From positions 1 to 47,718 of the forward strand of contig JAGOPG010000001.1 of assembly GCA_017992115.1 (NCBI GenBank): a DNA stretch of 47,718 nt, written 5' to 3'. Source of the DNA: Candidatus Shapirobacteria bacterium. GTDB taxonomy: Bacteria > Patescibacteriota > Microgenomatia > UBA12405. This document shows positions 2,769 to 9,996 of this stretch, piece after piece. The position numbers and the translations under genes are program-made. Numbering within the stretch: the stretch's first letter is position 1; every line of letters begins with the position of its first letter. The notes below the pieces were generated by a model. The model saw nothing but the letters and a program-made list of their open reading frames with translations, made no database searches and was not told where the DNA came from.

Positions 2769-3212
2769 ATGGCATTTAGTATCAATATCGCAATCATTAC
2801 TGGAAATCTTACTCGTGATCCAGAACTTCGTTATACTCCTTCCGGGACTGCAGTATGCAGTTTTGGTGTCGCCACTAATCATTCAATTAAAAAGGATGAC
2901 CAGTGGACAGATATTCCCACTTTCCACAATATTGTTGTTTGGGGAAAACAAGCTGAATACATCAGTAACACCTTAAAAAAGGGCATGAAAGTATCACTTA
3001 CTGGTCGTATAGATAATCGTCAATATGACGCTAAAGACGGCACTAAAAAATATATTAGCGAAATTATTGCAGACACTGTTGTACCTTTTACCGACAGAAA
3101 ATCAGTTGATACTGCAAGCACTGAGGTAGACAACACTCCGGCCCAGGATGCAGGTGCTGCAACAGAAGACAAGGTGGAGGATATCGTTATTCCCGACGAA
3201 ATGCCTTTCTAA
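2769..3212 (+). CDS. ssb: single-stranded DNA-binding protein
   Basis: OB-fold start ITGNLTRDPELRYTPSGTAVCSFGVATN, an acidic disordered tail, and a C-terminus ending DEMPF (canonical SSB tip D-D-I-P-F type). Confidence 0.93.
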   Translation: MAFSINIAIITGNLTRDPELRYTPSGTAVCSFGVATNHSIKKDDQWTDIPTFHNIVVWGKQAEYISNTLKKGMKVSLTGRIDNRQYDAKDGTKKYISEIIADTVVPFTDRKSVDTASTEVDNTPAQDAGAATEDKVEDIVIPDEMPF

Positions 3213-3414
3213 CCTCGTCTAATTTCTCTTCGAAAATTTTAACATACTTGATATTTTTGTGTCCTGTTTCTATACAATGTCCTAACCTTGTTTCTATTGT
3301 GGCAGATAACTGAGCGCAATCAATATTTCCTTCATTTTCTATTCTATAAATATCTCCCTCCCAGCCACAATCATTACATGTTGGTTTCACTCCGATTATT
3401 TCTTTTGGTGACAT
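3187..3414 (-). CDS. hypothetical 75-aa Cys/His-containing protein
   Basis: ORF track. A near-consensus promoter sits directly upstream. The N-terminal CNDCGWEGD resembles the core of the 36-aa peptide at 4339..4449. The 3' end overlaps ssb by 26 nt. No family recognised. Confidence 0.5.
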   Translation of the reverse strand: MSPKEIIGVKPTCNDCGWEGDIYRIENEGNIDCAQLSATIETRLGHCIETGHKNIKYVKIFEEKLDEVRKAFRRE

Positions 3415-3540: not shown

Positions 3541-4239
3541 ATGTCATATAAAACATTGAAGGTATTGGAGAATTTGGTGTTAATCTGTGATACAAAAATC
3601 GAAAATACTAGAGAGGTAAAACGAAATCTAACGGAAGCGTATCAGACCAATAAAAAATTTTTTAACAGCGATACCCCTACGATTGCTGTTACTTTTGTTT
3701 ATAAAAGAACAGATCTTGAAAAAATTGTTCATCATCAAACAAAGGATTGGGAAGTCGCCTATGCATATAACAACGATGAGCTAAAAAATCAGATTGTTAT
3801 TTTTAGTCCCGAAGTTATTGAAACAGTATCCCGAAACACTAAAAGTTATTTTCCTTACTTGCTGACACATGAGATGGCACATATTTTTACTAATAATGTA
3901 TGTATTTTTTTTCAACCCAGATGGTTATATGAAGGCTTGGCTGGGTTTGTGGCCAAACAATACACAAAAATCAAAAAAATATCAAAATTTGTAGAATTTA
4001 AATTTATTCATGATAAAAATGGATGGAATAATAATCCAAGTTATGCCCAAGCTTATTCTTTTACCAAGTTTCTAATTGACAAATACGGAGAAAAAAAAGT
4101 ACTCAATTTTACAATTGAGAGATTAAGTAAACTGAATAGATATCACAAATTTGAGGAATTTAAAACGGAATACGACGACTTTTTTAAAGAGAAATTTGAG
4201 AAGGTAAGTGAGCTTTGGAAACAAAATACATTTTATTAA
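3541..4239 (+). CDS. clan MA (gluzincin) zinc metallopeptidase, Peptidase_MA_2-like, cytoplasmic
   Basis: HExxH in LLTHEMAHIF, followed by the third-ligand motif WLYEGLAGF. No signal peptide or TM helix. Confidence 0.65.
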   Translation: MSYKTLKVLENLVLICDTKIENTREVKRNLTEAYQTNKKFFNSDTPTIAVTFVYKRTDLEKIVHHQTKDWEVAYAYNNDELKNQIVIFSPEVIETVSRNTKSYFPYLLTHEMAHIFTNNVCIFFQPRWLYEGLAGFVAKQYTKIKKISKFVEFKFIHDKNGWNNNPSYAQAYSFTKFLIDKYGEKKVLNFTIERLSKLNRYHKFEEFKTEYDDFFKEKFEKVSELWKQNTFY

Positions 4240-4291: not shown

Positions 4292-4324
4292 GTGGTACTC
4301 ACAAACATTGTCTATGAGTACCAC
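4292..4324. terminator. 10-bp perfect stem-loop immediately downstream of the 36-aa peptide gene
   Basis: GTGGTACTCA (4292-4301) pairs with TGAGTACCAC (4315-4324) around a 13-nt loop. It lies 14 nt after the peptide stop codon on the minus strand. Confidence 0.45.
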
Positions 4325-4338
4325 TCTAGAGTTGGATA

Positions 4339-4449
4339 TTAACCTTCTTTGTCACACTGATCGCTGTCACAGCCAGAGCCTTCACACCAGCCATCACAGT
4401 CATCGCAGTTTGACGTTAACATGGTTATGATCCCTTCAAGTTGGTCCAT
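4339..4449 (-). CDS. 36-aa Cys/Asp-rich peptide, candidate RiPP precursor (below the 60-aa cutoff of the ORF track)
   Basis: Hand translation of the reverse strand gives ATG(4449) MDQLEGIITMLTSNCDDCDGWCEGSGCDSDQCDKEG TAA(4341-4339). A perfect SD AAGGAGGTG lies 6 nt upstream. The gene starts 18 nt after the radical SAM stop codon and is followed by two hairpins. Confidence 0.7.
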   Translation of the reverse strand: MDQLEGIITMLTSNCDDCDGWCEGSGCDSDQCDKEG

Positions 4450-4455
4450 TTTTCT

Positions 4456-4464
4456 CACCTCCTT
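4456..4464 (-). promoter_or_regulatory. Shine-Dalgarno site of the 36-aa peptide gene
   Basis: The reverse strand reads AAGGAGGTG, then AGAAAA, then ATG. This is the strongest SD I found in the window. Confidence 0.7.
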
Positions 4465-4467
4465 TCG

Positions 4468-5748
4468 TTACAAGAGTATTTGTTTATGCTTCAAATAGGA
4501 CACGACCTGTATTACTTTTTCAAGCTCAACTCCAAGAACCTTTTGGAACTCATCTATAGAAATCATCTCCTTTCCATTTTCGAACAATTTACTGAGCCTT
4601 TGGTCAACCGGCACCCAAGCACTAGTCGAAACAAACAACACTGATCCGAAAGGTTCAAGGCGTGTTTGCATCCTTGGATTTACCAAAAACTGGGTGTCTT
4701 GCGTTTGTGGTATCGGAACTTTGGGTAGGCCATGTTGTGGAATATATTTCTGATCACACATTGGATCGGCAGCCTTTTTTGATCCGAACGCGGTGAATGC
4801 ATCGGCCTTACAACCTCCCATGCAACGTGTCTTTATGGCACAACTTCCGCATACTTCAGGTAATAACACTTCTGACCGCCATTCCTCCATTCTTTTCCAA
4901 GCAAGTTGTAGACTCTCATCGATATTACCGTAGCTTTCTGATGCCCTATTACATGGTTTGACATTACCGTCAAAGCCAATAGTGCATGTGGTCTTCCCGG
5001 CAGTGCAGAACTTATATCCTTGAATTGGTATATGTCCTCCATAACTACATACTGGGTTTGCCTCCAGAGAGTTTACGTGCAGATCGAATTCTTTCCCAGC
5101 TATTTCTAGTTCCTCTTGCATCTGTCGAAATTCTGTCAGAGTCAATAGTTGACTGGTAAAGCCTCTTCCGGAAGAAGGATCCGAAGCTTTCGTAACTGCA
5201 AAACTCGGAAGGCCAAGTGATGAAACTAACGCTGCAGTTTGGTTAATTTGACTTAGATTGTATTTTGAAACAACCATATTTACATAAATTGGGAAGCCGA
5301 AACTTTTAGCCAGATTAATTCCATGGACTATTTTTCGGAGGGAACCCTTACTACCAGTAATTTGATCACATACTTTCGAATCACCTGAGGGTAGGGAAAC
5401 TAAAATTGACTTTATTCCACAATCCTTAAGAATTTTCGCTTTTCCTGGTGTCAGTAACGTAAGGTTACTATTCATAGAAACAGATACTCCGCCATCCGAG
5501 AGAGATTTTATATAGTCTCTTAGCTCCCTTATAACAACTAATGGTTCTCCCCCCGTAATAATGACAGAAAAAACTTTATTGCTTAGTATTTCCGATACTA
5601 TCTTGGGGTAAAGTGTAAAATAGTTGGAAGTAAGTGAACTAGTTGGTTGAACATCTCTCCAATAGTTGTAACAGTGTTTACAATTGTGATTACAAACGGG
5701 TGTTACTTCCCACTGGACTCCAATAGGTGCAGACAATGTCGTAAACAT
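4468..5748 (-). CDS. radical SAM / SPASM-domain peptide-modifying enzyme (RiPP maturase candidate)
   Basis: CX3CX2C at residues 19-26 (VCNHNCKHCY) and the SAM-binding motif ITGGEPL. Full SPASM signature: CTIGFDGNVKPC (GX4C) and CGSCAIKTRCMGGC (CX2CX5CX3C), plus a later Cys (DPMC). A roughly 85-aa C-terminal extension follows. SD AGGAG lies 8 nt before the ATG. Confidence 0.9.
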   Translation of the reverse strand: MFTTLSAPIGVQWEVTPVCNHNCKHCYNYWRDVQPTSSLTSNYFTLYPKIVSEILSNKVFSVIITGGEPLVVIRELRDYIKSLSDGGVSVSMNSNLTLLTPGKAKILKDCGIKSILVSLPSGDSKVCDQITGSKGSLRKIVHGINLAKSFGFPIYVNMVVSKYNLSQINQTAALVSSLGLPSFAVTKASDPSSGRGFTSQLLTLTEFRQMQEELEIAGKEFDLHVNSLEANPVCSYGGHIPIQGYKFCTAGKTTCTIGFDGNVKPCNRASESYGNIDESLQLAWKRMEEWRSEVLLPEVCGSCAIKTRCMGGCKADAFTAFGSKKAADPMCDQKYIPQHGLPKVPIPQTQDTQFLVNPRMQTRLEPFGSVLFVSTSAWVPVDQRLSKLFENGKEMISIDEFQKVLGVELEKVIQVVSYLKHKQILL

Positions 5749-5780
5749 AAACTTTTCTCCTGTATTTTAAGGTGCACGTT

Positions 5781-5818
5781 GTTACATGCTGATGGACTGA
5801 ATCTATCGTTACATGCTG
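5781..5818 (-). repeat. two copies of an 11-bp direct repeat (CAGCATGTAAC on the minus strand) in the radical SAM leader
   Basis: GTTACATGCTG occurs at 5781-5791 and 5808-5818 on the plus strand, a 27-bp period. Both copies lie between the predicted promoter and the SD. Confidence 0.5.
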
Positions 5819-5843
5819 GGCTATCCAGTAGAACAACAAACGA

Positions 5844-5872
5844 ATTATATGCCAAAACATCCGGAAAATCAA
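5844..5872 (-). promoter_or_regulatory. sigma70-type promoter of the radical SAM/peptide operon (TTGATT-N17-TATAAT)
   Basis: The reverse strand reads TTGATT (5872->5867), a 17-nt spacer, then TATAAT (5849->5844). This predicts a roughly 90-nt leader before ATG 5748. Confidence 0.5.
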
Positions 5873-5995
5873 ATAATACAATCCTATAAGAAGCGAATAT
5901 TCAGTGTTATACACCTTAAAGGCTCTTTATAAAAGGTAATTGTTAAATATCAAAATAAAGTGTTAATTATTTTTGGAGTAGCTCTTTCATTTTTG

Positions 5996-6067
5996 TGACC
6001 CCACGGAGAATTGAACTCCGGTTACCAGGATGAGAACCTGATGTCCTAGCCACTAGACGATGGGGCC
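5996..6067 (-). tRNA. tRNA-Glu (anticodon CUC), no encoded CCA
   Basis: The reverse strand GGCCCCATCGTCTAGTGGCTAGGACATCAGGTTCTCATCCTGGTAACCGGAGTTCAATTCTCCGTGGGGTCA folds by hand into a 72-nt cloverleaf. It has a 7-bp acceptor stem, D stem GTCT/GGAC, anticodon stem TCAGG/CCTGG with loop TTCTCAT, and T arm CGGAG-TTCAATT-CTCCG. Confidence 0.9.
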
Positions 6068-6093
6068 ATCTAGATGTTGTACAATTAAATCAG

Positions 6094-7221
6094 ATGAATT
6101 TTAACAAATATCATCACCAATTGCTCCTTCTATTAATTACCTTTTTCTCCTCAGCTTTAATTTGGTTTTTATTTTACAAAAATATTCCTAGGTTTTTAGG
6201 CTTTCCAGCCACCAGTCTAGAAACTATATACGCCAATTACGATGGTCCCAATTATATGATTATTGCCAAGTGTGGATACAATAAGGATTGTATTCGTCAG
6301 CAATTTTCCCTCCCCTTGCCTCTAGAATATTACCCTGCACATCTTCCGGCATTTCCTCTGCTGATTAAAATTTTTTCACTTTTTTTAACCACTCCCAAAG
6401 CAATGCTTTTAGTTTGTCTATTAGGATCGGCATTTTTTACTTTATCTTGTTATTATTTTTTTCGATTATTTTTTAGCGAGAAAAAATCATTTTGGCTTTC
6501 ATTCTTAATTATTTTCTTTCCGGCCCGACTTTTTATCTTAAGACTGATAGGTGCACCTGAAACCTGGTTCTTGGGCTCAATCTTATTCTCCATCGTTTTC
6601 TTTAAGAAAAACAAATTCTTACCATCAGCTCTTTTTGGAGTATTTGCCCAACTCTTAAAAAGTCCGGGAATCTTGCTCTTTGTTGCCTACGCTTTTACTT
6701 TCTTGTTCGAATATATAAAAAGCAAAAAAATAAATAAAAATTATTTATGGTATTTGTTAATTCCAATTTCCGCCTTAGGAATTTTTTATCTATACTATCT
6801 ACAAACAGGGGATTTTTGGGCATATTTTAATTCTGGAGACAACATTCACCTGACGCCTTTTCCTTACCAAGTTTTTGTCAGTAACCGTTCATGGATTAGT
6901 ACAATTTGGCTGGAAGATATTATTTACATTTTAATTTTTTGCTTTTCTGCCCTAAAAAAATTATGGAAAAAATATTCTCGTGATATTGTTTTTATTTTTC
7001 CATTTGTTTTTACTCTTGCTACTATCATGGTGGCTCATCGTGACATCAGCCGTTATATTGCTCCAGTCTATCCCTTTGTTTTTCTCGCTTTTGGAAATAA
7101 AATTACCAAGAAAAAGAATCGTCTTCTCTTTTATCTACTTATACCGGCAGTTCTCCTTTATGCTATCAATTTTGTAATCGGCAATACTGCCCCTGTTGAC
7201 AACTGGACACCTTATCTTTAA
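6094..7221 (+). CDS. polytopic membrane protein, putative GT-C-type glycosyltransferase
   Basis: About 10 predicted hydrophobic helices with the loop ANYDGPNYMIIAKCGY. No specific family assigned. Confidence 0.5.
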   Translation: MNFNKYHHQLLLLLITFFSSALIWFLFYKNIPRFLGFPATSLETIYANYDGPNYMIIAKCGYNKDCIRQQFSLPLPLEYYPAHLPAFPLLIKIFSLFLTTPKAMLLVCLLGSAFFTLSCYYFFRLFFSEKKSFWLSFLIIFFPARLFILRLIGAPETWFLGSILFSIVFFKKNKFLPSALFGVFAQLLKSPGILLFVAYAFTFLFEYIKSKKINKNYLWYLLIPISALGIFYLYYLQTGDFWAYFNSGDNIHLTPFPYQVFVSNRSWISTIWLEDIIYILIFCFSALKKLWKKYSRDIVFIFPFVFTLATIMVAHRDISRYIAPVYPFVFLAFGNKITKKKNRLLFYLLIPAVLLYAINFVIGNTAPVDNWTPYL

Positions 7222-8087
7222 ATATAAAGATAAATTCTTCCATTATCTTCTGATATCTTACCCTCAAGACACATCATGCTAATTTTGCTGGTTAATTCCG
7301 AAGTTTCAATTTTTAATTCATTGCATAATTCATCGACACTTTTAGCTTCTATTTTAAGCAATTCAATAATTGAATTTTCCAACGGATCGCTGCTTTCAAA
7401 TAATACTCCCTGAGTTAAATTATCCATATTTCCGACAATATCTTGAGCCTTTGTTGTTATCTTTCCCTGTTTACTTTTAATTAAATAATTTGTGCCTTCA
7501 GCAATACTGTTATTAATTTGACCCGGTACGGCATATATTTTTTTTCCCTGTTCTCTGCCGATCCTGGCAGTAATCAGAGATCCGGATTTTATTCCCGCTT
7601 CAACCACCAACACTCCCAGAGTAGATAAACCGGAAACTATCCTGTTTCTTTGTGGAAAACTCCATAAAGTTGGTTGGAAATTTGGTGTATACTCCGAGAT
7701 CACCAAGCCATTGTTTTCTAAAATTTCGCTATAAAGATTGTCATTTTCCGGGGGAGTTAAAATGTTTAAACCACCTCCCAGCACGGCTATAGTCTTGCCA
7801 CCAAATTCCAGACATTTTTTATGTGACTCGGCATCAACTCCGTACATAAATCCGGATATTATGGTTATATTATTAGCCACAAAAACAGGCATAAATTTGG
7901 CAATTACTTCCTGGCCATATCGGCTCATTCTTCTACTACCCACTATTGATAAACTTTTTTTAAAAACATTATTATCCCAGTTACCTCTGTAAAATAATTT
8001 CTCTGGGCATTTCTTTATTTCTTTTAATTGTTTAGGAAAATCACTTTTTTCAATAGTGTTAATTTTCCACTCCCTCCAATTTTTCAT
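7218..8087 (-). CDS. dprA: DNA processing protein DprA (Smf)
   Basis: Rossmann-like core SIVGSRRMSRYG..GVDAESHKKCLEFGGKTIAVLGGGLN..YP.EN, and a C-terminal winged-helix-like tail. Confidence 0.9.
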   Translation of the reverse strand: MKNWREWKINTIEKSDFPKQLKEIKKCPEKLFYRGNWDNNVFKKSLSIVGSRRMSRYGQEVIAKFMPVFVANNITIISGFMYGVDAESHKKCLEFGGKTIAVLGGGLNILTPPENDNLYSEILENNGLVISEYTPNFQPTLWSFPQRNRIVSGLSTLGVLVVEAGIKSGSLITARIGREQGKKIYAVPGQINNSIAEGTNYLIKSKQGKITTKAQDIVGNMDNLTQGVLFESSDPLENSIIELLKIEAKSVDELCNELKIETSELTSKISMMCLEGKISEDNGRIYLYI

Positions 8088-8458
8088 TCAATATTCTCAT
8101 AATGGCTAATCTTATCTCCCAAGATACATACGGCATCAATTCGGTATTTTTTAAATTTATACATTTCTTGTCGTTTTTCAACAATATAACTCTCTGCGAC
8201 TTTTTTCACCTGCCATATCTTATTTTTGCTAATCATTTCTTCCGGAACTCCAAACTTATCGTCACTTTTATACTTTACTTCAATGAAAACCAACCAATCA
8301 TTATCGGTCATTATCAAATCAATTTCTCCGATTTTATTTTCAAAGTTTGCCTCTATAAAATTAAAGCCCTTTTTTATTAAAAAATCCTTGGCTATATTTT
8401 CCCCATACTTTCCTTTATGATAATTTTCCTCTTTAACTTTAACTGTATTTAACATCAT
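8084..8458 (-). CDS. yraN: YraN family (UPF0102) endonuclease-like protein
   Basis: GENIAKDFLIKKGFNFIEANF..GEIDLIM...LVFIEVKYK is the PD-(D/E)xK signature of UPF0102. The conserved neighbourhood with comM and dprA is present. Confidence 0.85.
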   Translation of the reverse strand: MMLNTVKVKEENYHKGKYGENIAKDFLIKKGFNFIEANFENKIGEIDLIMTDNDWLVFIEVKYKSDDKFGVPEEMISKNKIWQVKKVAESYIVEKRQEMYKFKKYRIDAVCILGDKISHYENIE

Positions 8459-8460
8459 CT

Positions 8461-9996
8461 CTATTCTCCCGTTCTTACTCTATATTGTAATGCCTCAGCA
8501 ATATGTACTTCCTTGATTGTGTCAGAAGCTGCTAAGTCGGCAATTGTTCGACTGACTTTTATTAACCTAAAATAAGTTCTGGCAGACAGAGAGAATTTAT
8601 TTACCGCGTTTTTCAACAACAAATTTGCGGATTCTTCTAGTTTTGCCCATTCTTTTAAGTGTTTATTTTTCATATCTGAATTGCAATAAACACCTTTAGC
8701 ATTTTTAAATCTTATCTTTTGAATTTCACGGGCTTTAATTACTCTTTCCCTGATTACTTCAGATTTTTCAGAAGTATTATCGACATTTTTTACCATTAAT
8801 TTATTTACATCAACGGATGGTACATTCAAGTGAATATCAATCCGGTCCATAATTGGGCCTGATAATTTTTTTTGATAATTCAATACTTGATGAACATTAC
8901 ATTTACATTCCTTTTTTTCATCTCCTAAATATCCACACGGGCAAGGATTTGCCGCTGCTACCAACATAAATTGGCATGGAAAAGTTACTGATCCCGAAGC
9001 TCTGGAAATACTTACATATCCATCCTCAATTGGCTGACGTAAAGCCTCTAAACTAATTCTACTCAACTCAGGAAACTCATCAATAAAGAGTACTCCCCGA
9101 TGAGCCAAAGAGATTTCACCGGGTCTCGGGTTACTTCCACCACCAATTAAACCTACTTGAGAGGTGGTATGGTGGGGACTTCTAAAGGGACGATTTCTAA
9201 TCATTGACCCGCCCGAGGGAATATTACCGGTTATAGAATAAATTTTTGTCACCTCCAAACTTTCATCCTCAGACAGAGGAGGCAAAATTCCCGGGAGAGC
9301 TCTAGATAACATTGTTTTTCCACTCCCGGGAGGGCCCATTAAAAACACGTTATGGCCTCCAGCTGCAGCAATTTCTAAAGCTCTTTTTGCTGATTCCTGG
9401 CCTAAAATTTCAGAAAAATCAAACTGAATTATTGATTTATCCAACAATTCATGACTTTCAACATATTTTAAAGGTTCGATTAACTTATCACCACGTAAAT
9501 GTCTAATCAGATCTTTTAAACTGTTGACCGGATAAACTTCAATCCCTTCGACCACTGCTGCTTCATTGGCACAAAGTCTGGGTACAAATATTTTTTTAAC
9601 TCCTTTTTCTTTTGCCAAAATTGCCAATAAAAAAACACCTCTTGAATGTCTGAGACTTCCGTCTAGTGACAATTCTCCAAAATAATATTCCTTATCATCG
9701 GGTAGATTTATTTGATCACTTGAGGCCAGAATTCCGACTGCAATTGGTAAATCGTAATAAGCACCTTCTTTTGGTAAATCAGCTGGCGCCAAATTTACTG
9801 TAATTTTGGCTGTTGGAAATTCCATATCACAGTTAATAATGGCTGTTTTGACTCTTTCCTTGGCTTCTTCTACTGCCTTACTGGCCAAACCAACAATCGT
9901 AAAGCCAGGAAAACCTTTTTCAGCCACATTAACTTCAGTTTCTATCTGGACTGCTTCCAGTCCATAATTTGCCGCACTCCATATTTTTGTTAACAT
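8461..9996 (-). CDS. comM: Mg-chelatase-like AAA+ ATPase YifB/ComM
   Basis: N-terminal Lon-protease-like domain, Walker A GPPGSGKTM, Walker B LFIDEF, and the zinc-ribbon-like insertion CPCGYLGDEKKECKC. Confidence 0.92.
   Translation of the reverse strand: MLTKIWSAANYGLEAVQIETEVNVAEKGFPGFTIVGLASKAVEEAKERVKTAIINCDMEFPTAKITVNLAPADLPKEGAYYDLPIAVGILASSDQINLPDDKEYYFGELSLDGSLRHSRGVFLLAILAKEKGVKKIFVPRLCANEAAVVEGIEVYPVNSLKDLIRHLRGDKLIEPLKYVESHELLDKSIIQFDFSEILGQESAKRALEIAAAGGHNVFLMGPPGSGKTMLSRALPGILPPLSEDESLEVTKIYSITGNIPSGGSMIRNRPFRSPHHTTSQVGLIGGGSNPRPGEISLAHRGVLFIDEFPELSRISLEALRQPIEDGYVSISRASGSVTFPCQFMLVAAANPCPCGYLGDEKKECKCNVHQVLNYQKKLSGPIMDRIDIHLNVPSVDVNKLMVKNVDNTSEKSEVIRERVIKAREIQKIRFKNAKGVYCNSDMKNKHLKEWAKLEESANLLLKNAVNKFSLSARTYFRLIKVSRTIADLAASDTIKEVHIAEALQYRVRTGE

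Follow-up and report, generated by a model that had tools for sequence, protein, structure and literature searches.

In the ranthipeptide and SCIFF systems (PapB-PapA of freyrasin, CteB-CteA and Tte1186), a radical S-adenosylmethionine (SAM) maturase with a SPASM domain is encoded beside a short Cys-rich precursor peptide. The same arrangement was found in the DNA studied here, a window of 47,718 nt (the whole stretch that was analysed; contig JAGOPG010000001.1, Candidatus Shapirobacteria bacterium), in which the gene for a radical SAM/SPASM enzyme is followed by a 36-codon open reading frame (ORF) and then by a convergent gene for a small HExxH protein. The evidence supports the 36-codon ORF as a precursor peptide gene standing beside its peptide-modifying maturase. 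The three genes (a radical SAM enzyme with a built-in recognition domain, a small peptide and a zinc protease) form a conserved module, mostly in tiny-genome bacteria of the candidate phyla radiation (CPR), which very probably represents a new family of enzyme-modified peptides. The coordinates of the features are collected in Table 1.

The locus departs from the ranthipeptide and SCIFF systems in that its recognition domain is C-terminal and MftB-like, and in having a gluzincin peptidase as partner. Leader-guided cross-linking of short peptides, which is also proposed here, is carried out by the sactipeptide synthases AlbA, SkfB and StsB and by the streptide enzyme SuiB, and SuiB and SkfB are the closest solved folds to the present enzyme; the precursors, however, are unrelated in sequence. 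In these enzymes the recognition element for the ribosomally synthesized peptide that is modified post-translationally (RiPP) is at the N-terminus. Mycofactocin (MftA/MftB/MftC/MftE) is likewise made by a small module without an exporter, MftC is among the best-scoring relatives of the present enzyme, and the recognition domain described below is MftB-like. The RiPP recognition element (RRE) is a separate protein in mycofactocin, whereas here it is fused to the enzyme; the MftA precursor ends in a C-terminal Val-Tyr, whereas the present one is Cys-rich and ends in …CDKEG; and the MftE peptidase is of the creatininase type, whereas the present one is an HExxH gluzincin. The M1-type leader peptidases of class III lanthipeptides (EryP/AplP-like) are MA-clan zinc gluzincins, as the present peptidase is predicted to be, and EryP (a lanthipeptide zinc-metallopeptidase by its PDB annotation) is among its fold matches; EryP-type enzymes are multidomain proteins of about 850 aa, unlike the minimal catalytic domain in the window, with which identity is about 12%. 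In CX3D motifs, PapB joins six Cys sulfurs to Asp Cβ by thioether bonds (PMC10177961). Cys and Asp are abundant in the present cores too, although their conserved unit is a C-D/E dipeptide with CxC spacing and not CX3D. StsB comes from an MftC-like group with CxCxC-type precursors (PMC10288494).

Table 1. Features of the radical SAM locus in the window
Feature	Position	Strand	Basis or detail
HExxH gluzincin-type zinc metallopeptidase, 232 aa, putative leader peptidase	3541..4239	+	Pfam, AlphaFold2 (AF2), Foldseek, synteny
Hairpin 2, perfect 12-bp stem, 20-nt loop	4246..4289 (arms 4246-4257/4278-4289)		just past the peptidase stop
Hairpin 1, 16-nt arms, 88% complementarity	4292..4324 (arms 4292-4307/4309-4324)		between the convergent peptide and peptidase genes
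Gene of the precursor peptide, 36 aa	4339..4449	-	leader MDQLEGIITMLTS, core NCDDCDGWCEGSGCDSDQCDKEG
Shine-Dalgarno site AAGGAGGTG	4456..4464	-	6-nt spacer to the peptide ATG
Radical SAM/SPASM peptide maturase, 426 aa	4468..5748	-	Pfam, NCBIfam, homologue alignment, AF2, Foldseek
C-terminal fused RRE-like (MftB/PqqD-type) putative leader-recognition domain, ~residues 350-426	4471..4701	-	conservation, AF2 topology, profile matches
Promoter-like TTGATT-17-TATAAT (candidate)	5844..5872	-	10/12 consensus matches, between tRNA-Glu and the enzyme gene
tRNA-Glu, anticodon CTC	5995-6067	-	247 nt upstream of the enzyme gene

The peptide gene and the radical SAM/SPASM enzyme

The 36-codon ORF was found where the first-pass annotation had placed it, separated from the TAA stop of the enzyme gene by 18 nt (CGAAAGGAGGTGAGAAAA); all elements of the layout described there are present, but on the minus strand. 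Its product is MDQLEGIITMLTSNCDDCDGWCEGSGCDSDQCDKEG, read from an ATG at 4449 to a stop codon at 4339-4341. The core contains 5 Cys, 8 acidic residues and 1 Lys; the peptide has no Tyr, and its leader carries EGIITML, which matches the family motif (E)GI(I/V)xxL. The strong Shine-Dalgarno site with its short spacer was also as described. The site AAGGAGGTG is present in a single copy in the 47.7-kb window, which is not rare by chance, as 22 of 100 shuffled windows held at least one copy. The ATG is the likely start, because the alternative GTG (4458) falls within the Shine-Dalgarno site.

The ORF is confirmed as a real gene, more than a chance ORF. The exact 36-aa peptide has been gene-called on 15 public contigs, and a profile of the subclade peptides retrieved 15 database peptides, the exact window sequence among them. 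Relatives with an enzyme 48-65% identical to that of the window encode a homologous peptide at the same position. Codons at conserved peptide residues differ synonymously in 7 of 24 cases in comparison with locus L082 and in 6 of 14 with locus L081, and this use of different codons for conserved residues indicates selection on the protein sequence of the peptide. The protein accessions of the enzyme and of the hypothetical protein next to it run consecutively in two near-identical GenBank genomes (Ca. Shapirobacteria and Ca. Woesebacteria), so the annotation of both appears to skip the peptide gene. This apparent omission had escaped the first-pass annotation, as had the recognition domain fused to the enzyme and the HExxH gene as a third member of the module.

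When 185,579 species genomes were scanned for the enzyme, 245 loci were confirmed, of which the best 80 served for all locus counts reported here; the peptide counts combine a script applied just past the enzyme stop with a wider search. A small Cys-rich, mostly acidic ORF adjoins the enzyme gene in about 72 of the 80 loci, usually at -29 to +145 nt from the enzyme stop, and the family peptides have in common the N-terminal motif G-[IFY]-[VEI]-[ST]-L-[LIVM]. The presence of such an ORF beside orthologous radical SAM genes had been named in advance as the decisive observation, and the result supports the reading of the gene pair as precursor and maturase, together with the fused RRE-type domain and a fold closer to SuiB, SkfB and PqqE than to the anaerobic sulfatase maturase anSME.

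The peptide cores are hypervariable between lineages. Their composition was 24% Cys and 18% Asp over 73 peptides, with a median of 6 Cys and with CxC as the commonest spacing. Among 69 curated peptides, for which the median net charge was -5, 44% of the residues that follow Cys were Asp and 12% were Glu. Asp was enriched at position +1 after Cys and not at +4 (23%), and a PapB-style CX3D was therefore rejected as a conserved feature. The subclade of the window has the consensus C[DE]xCD(x)WCEGS[GST]C..[GD].C[DEQ]xEG-COOH; the peptide is MDRLEGIVPMLIAAGCDECDSWCEASGCESGHCDQEG at L082 and L083 (enzyme 65% identical to that of the window) and …CDWCEGSSCEGGQCDQEG at L081 (62% identical). For the window peptide no Pfam or NCBIfam family was matched; from 41 family peptides came a single marginal match to FibroRumin (E 0.012) and a single one to the CXXX-repeat target (E 0.13). 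None of these peptides matched a SCIFF or other named Cys-rich precursor model above its cut-off, and the earlier remark that the peptide is not recognised as a member of any named precursor family holds.

Several family members were of interest in their own right. The L002 peptide (P0131, a homologue of the precursor, 46 aa) bears the JGI name "Fe-S cluster biogenesis protein NfuA", which is probably a misannotation driven by Cys content. In the Levybacteria-type loci (L034, L038, L040 and L056) the HExxH gene overlaps the enzyme stop codon and the Cys/Asp-rich ORF is missing; an 86-aa ORF past the peptidase (at L056, for example, 6053-6313) combines the family leader motif (…PQFVSILNG…) with a Pro/Cys-rich core, and may be a variant substrate class. 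A cultured isolate, Lachnospiraceae bacterium 10-1 (KE159801.1, locus L028), encodes the enzyme and a peptide ending in …DKCDHCDFCDCDGGPSW, with a 389-aa ORF without a Pfam match overlapping the enzyme start. The peptidase gene of this isolate may be off the contig, as only 920 nt of downstream sequence are present.

The translation of the enzyme gene bore out the earlier description of CX3CX2C, GGEPL and a complete set of SPASM cysteines. The SAM-cluster motif is C19-x3-C23-x2-C26, TGGEPL occupies residues 65-70, and the SPASM pattern is complete (C248-x12-G261-x4-C266, C300-x2-C303-x5-C309-x3-C313 and the distal C331). The Pfam comparison that had been suggested placed the enzyme above the gathering cut-offs of Radical_SAM (74.8 bits, cut-off 29.5), Fer4_12 and SPASM (23.9 bits, cut-off 21.5). 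C19, C23, C26, C234, C248, C266, C300, C309 and C313 are invariant across 26 enzyme homologues, and most SPASM cysteines are thus covered. The AF2 model of the enzyme (predicted local distance difference test score, pLDDT, 93.6) was closest in Foldseek to SuiB, SkfB and PqqE, with anSME next, and the sequence-nearest solved structures are PqqE and SkfB. With its SAM motif, SPASM domain, recognition element and adjacent precursor, the enzyme belongs to the generic class of radical SAM/SPASM peptide maturases.

No NCBIfam equivalog cut-off was reached by the enzyme. The highest score was for AhbD (114 bits, cut-off 500), followed by NirJ2 (102.9, cut-off 500); GeoRSP, MftC (TIGR03962; 95.8, cut-off 265) and PqqE (TIGR02109; 93.7, cut-off 381) were next, GeoRSP also being below its cut-off. 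The thioether synthases PapB (NF047865; 65.7 bits, cut-off 340), StsB (53.8, cut-off 625) and AlbA (52, cut-off 850) scored lower. As no NCBIfam model scored above 114 bits, the SCIFF-maturase models are likewise below their cut-offs. The genetic arrangement does follow the logic of sactipeptide, ranthipeptide and SCIFF systems, as had been proposed, but membership in any of them does not: because their curated models are all far below cut-off, assignment to a named family is unsupported and we infer the thioether chemistry from the systems described above.

Other known systems fitted no better. For mycofactocin, the low MftC score is accompanied by a precursor that lacks the Val-Tyr terminus, and all-against-all clustering of the flanking ORFs showed no dehydrogenase partners conserved with the module; for pyrroloquinoline quinone (PQQ), the PqqE score is far below cut-off and the Glu-x3-Tyr of PqqA is absent from a peptide without Tyr. 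Membership in the anSME or heme (AhbD-NirJ) groups was rejected on the AhbD and NirJ2 scores and on the presence of both an RRE and a precursor. A known anti-phage defence system was also rejected: PADLOC models gave only a generic similarity of enzyme residues 11-167 to the pVip core, and the peptide and peptidase were unmatched. The literature on radical SAM RiPPs and CPR bacteria, papers in subscription journals being outside the scope of the search, yielded no description of the present family. The enzyme family is uncharacterised, has the generic features of radical SAM/SPASM RiPP enzymes, and is claimed by no curated Pfam or NCBIfam family.

The last ~75 residues of the enzyme are conserved family-wide, including R363, E365, F367, G368 and W378 in the alignment of 26 homologues. 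In the AF2 model this region folds as a beta-sheet followed by a winged helix (E353-356, E361-365, E368-374, E377-382, H383-389, E395-397, H398-405, H409-421), and its profile matches winged-helix chains. The NCBIfam model of the mycofactocin chaperone MftB (TIGR03967) was matched by the domain in 16 of the 26 family members (best E 1.5e-5), and Pfam PqqD was not detected in it. Among 1.84 billion representative proteins the domain occurred 107 times, nearly always at the C-terminus of proteins of ~420-470 aa or fragments thereof, and this near confinement makes it a signature of the enzyme family. We read it as a fused RRE, which would bind the leader of the adjacent peptide.

The HExxH gene and the distribution of the module

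The protein encoded convergently to the peptide contains the motif H110-E-M-A-H114, followed 16 residues on by E131 within WLYEGLAG, and these HExxH-x16-E ligands are invariant in 7 peptidase homologues. No obvious signal peptide was seen. No curated Pfam or NCBIfam family was matched above cut-off, NCBIfam giving a weak flagellinolysin match and no match to an HExxH-modification model; the homologues, however, carry precomputed BSP and Peptidase_MA_2 domains, and the family member at L034 passes the gathering cut-offs of both. The AF2 model (pLDDT 91.7) matched, with a Foldseek probability of 1.00 and E down to 6e-5, the peptidase domains of M9 collagenases, the M1 aminopeptidases LTA4H/ERAP/IRAP, and EryP. 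With HExxH, a downstream Glu and a modelled thermolysin-like fold, the protein is predicted to be an MA-clan (gluzincin) zinc metallopeptidase.

In 61 of the 80 loci an HExxH ORF is present no more than 2.5 kb from the enzyme gene, and at least 52 loci have both the peptide and the HExxH ORF. The first-pass annotation had seen a minimal unit of two genes, which was not borne out, the convergent HExxH gene being a conserved third member. These ORFs encode 200-300 aa, are typically located 170-350 nt past the enzyme stop, and can be on either strand. They form five BLAST clusters, four of which, excluding that of the window protein, have only marginal similarity to M78, M91 or SprT. At L012 (WWE3 bacterium), two tandem HExxH paralogues and an apparent second radical SAM ORF were observed downstream of the first module (5581-8741), which suggests a local duplication of the system.

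The three genes are found together in the window, L081 and L082, with unrelated neighbours in each: tRNA-Glu and ssb in the window, PNPase and an AAA/Lon-like gene at L081, and NUDIX and SMC-like genes at L082. In the clustering of flanking ORFs no protein family besides HExxH recurred, the two other recurring clusters consisting of ORFs within the enzyme gene and antisense to it. This analysis showed neither a transporter nor an immunity gene conserved with the module, as had been remarked for the window, and no heme or sulfatase genes were conserved nearby. The Clostridia locus L070 is flanked by CAP/SH3 and copper-amine-oxidase-N-domain proteins and by an NMT1-type ABC importer, which were rejected as module members because they are not conserved with it.

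Homologues of the enzyme numbered 511 at E ≤ 1e-10, mostly from Patescibacteria/CPR. The family amounts to ~100 clusters at 50% identity; centred on CPR bacteria, it was also seen in DPANN archaea, Clostridia (including Lachnospiraceae bacterium 10-1), Omnitrophica, Caldisericia and Bacteroidota.

A proposed pathway and its alternatives

By analogy with the described systems, the locus probably encodes a leader-guided radical SAM RiPP module in which an array of cysteines would be cross-linked and the leader then removed by proteolysis, the product being a predicted and not an observed one. The enzyme and peptide genes would be co-transcribed on the minus strand, and the peptide would be translated from its own strong ribosome-binding site. 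The MftB/PqqD-like domain at the C-terminus of the enzyme would bind the short leader (…EGIITML…), positioning the Cys-rich acidic core in the active site. There, the 5'-deoxyadenosyl radical from the SAM cluster would abstract hydrogen from the core, while two SPASM auxiliary clusters would hold a Cys thiolate and accept the second electron. Most probably, every Cys thiol would be joined as an intramolecular thioether to a carbon atom in a neighbouring residue, and 2 Da would be lost for each such link. The cytoplasmic gluzincin metallopeptidase would then cleave off the leader, giving a compact, polyanionic, multiply bridged peptide of ~22 residues.

A number of observations weigh against this pathway. 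The chemistry is drawn from analogy only, and the PapB-type spacing is not conserved; six family peptides have a core without any acidic residue (e.g. …ACYCHCACACHVTG). The best NCBIfam scores of the enzyme are for AhbD and NirJ2, which act on tetrapyrroles, and then for GeoRSP, MftC and PqqE, all above the thioether synthases. The C-terminal domain of the window enzyme, taken alone, matched neither MftB nor PqqD, the MftB matches being to its relatives. The match of the window peptidase to Peptidase_MA_2 was under the gathering cut-off (24.9 bits, cut-off 32.4), and ~19 loci, mostly from Clostridia, archaea and short contigs, have no HExxH neighbour. The lack of an exporter would be unusual for a secreted antimicrobial peptide.

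This last point bears on where the product would act. The three genes might make an intracellular peptide-derived cofactor or metal-binding factor (a mycofactocin-, PQQ- or metallothionein-like factor or a bufferin-like chelator) and not a secreted bioactive peptide, with the modified Cys array and the carboxylates binding metal or carrying a redox function. The nearest RiPP-type sequence relatives of the enzyme are the cofactor enzymes MftC and PqqE, the fused domain resembles MftB, an obvious signal peptide is missing from the peptidase, neither an exporter nor an immunity gene is conserved with the module, and the module is kept in many tiny-genome CPR and DPANN lineages; the CxC/CxxC spacing and the Cys content of the cores are also metallothionein-like. 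The family is nevertheless patchy among the species genomes scanned, the hypervariable cores are more typical of diversifying bioactive peptides, and no redox partner enzymes were found to be co-conserved, unlike in mycofactocin. We consider a cofactor or metal-binding factor unlikely overall but still a candidate, given the missing exporter, a core that is polyanionic and metallothionein-like, and an affinity to MftC, PqqE and MftB. A more specific proposal, that a novel intracellular polyanionic Cys-bridged peptide serves CPR and DPANN organisms as a metal-handling or redox factor analogous to mycofactocin or PQQ, made by a distinct enzyme lineage bearing a fused MftB-like domain, with cross-links at Cys-Asp/Glu that are neither sactionine nor CX3D in type, is given a similarly low probability.

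The HExxH protein could have another function than leader removal, either as a tailoring enzyme (an alpha-ketoglutarate-dependent HExxH hydroxylase or a backbone-cleaving oxidase) or as an immunity or turnover protease. Oxidative, non-hydrolytic HExxH enzymes are reported in RiPP pathways (PMC12636437, among others), and the matches of four of the five HExxH clusters to peptidase families are marginal. For the window protein this is rather improbable: its third gluzincin ligand stands within WLxEGxA, its similarities are to MA-clan Pfam families and flagellinolysin, its model can be superposed on peptidases of the M9 and M1 types, EryP among them, and the HExxH-modification models of NCBIfam were unmatched. 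A still more remote account is that the enzyme acts on a non-peptide substrate (AhbD/NirJ tetrapyrroles, or as a sulfatase-type maturase) and that the small ORF is either no gene at all or a metallothionein-like one unconnected with the enzyme. The leading AhbD and NirJ2 scores, the JGI label "AdoMet-dependent heme synthase" on some homologues and the presence of anSME among the structural matches would fit it. The curated cut-offs, however, exceed these scores 3-5 fold, and the best AhbD stretch (residues 11-214) is confined to the generic core; an RRE-like domain is fused to the enzyme, the small ORF is syntenic with a common leader motif and conserved at the codon level, and neither heme nor sulfatase genes are conserved near it. 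We regard a non-peptide substrate as very improbable, and retain the leader-guided RiPP module as the preferred reading.

CPR (Patescibacteria) and DPANN organisms have very small genomes, and few or no biosynthetic gene clusters (BGCs) are recorded for them in surveys: in one survey the Patescibacteria contributed 9 BGCs (PMC8692599), and the Patescibacteria metagenome-assembled genomes of a second survey had none (PMC11613949). The present compact module recurs across many such lineages. If the proposed pathway is correct, it would be a new radical SAM RiPP family, marked by a recognition domain arranged in its own way, by a minimal gluzincin peptidase dedicated to it and by a substrate rich in Cys and Asp. 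With only three genes and a relative in a cultured Lachnospiraceae strain, it would offer a tractable handle on the small molecules of episymbionts.

Intergenic elements and neighbouring genes

Two hairpins are located between the convergent peptide and peptidase genes. Both are strong, but of the two perfect hairpins described by the first-pass annotation only hairpin 2 has a perfect stem. Folded jointly as RNA they gave -50.2 kcal/mol (z = -8.9), a value not equalled in any of 200 shuffles. Neither has a T-run, and a consensus terminator scan did not call either of them; hairpin 2 could be a bidirectional terminator or stabiliser. The promoter-like sequence that precedes the enzyme gene is a candidate promoter of the operon by consensus match only; 7 such sites were found in the region and 5.3 were expected from shuffles. 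An insertion of the module next to the tRNA-Glu gene is conceivable, since the contexts of the module differ in its relatives.

On the far side of the peptidase gene, a 75-aa ORF (3187-3414, minus strand) runs antisense to ssb, whose 3' end it overlaps; it has a CxxC…C…C/H pattern (MSPKEIIGVKPTCNDCGWEGD…) and no Pfam match, and may be a small zinc-ribbon protein or spurious. Divergent from the tRNA/radical SAM unit, the ORF at 6094-7221 (plus strand) encodes an apparently multi-pass membrane protein of 375 aa, without a Pfam match at E ≤ 0.01. It is followed on the minus strand by a run of three genes (7218-9996), the first of which is DprA by Pfam; the 124-aa and 511-aa ORFs after it are, by eye, presumably YraN-like and ComM/Mg-chelatase-like.

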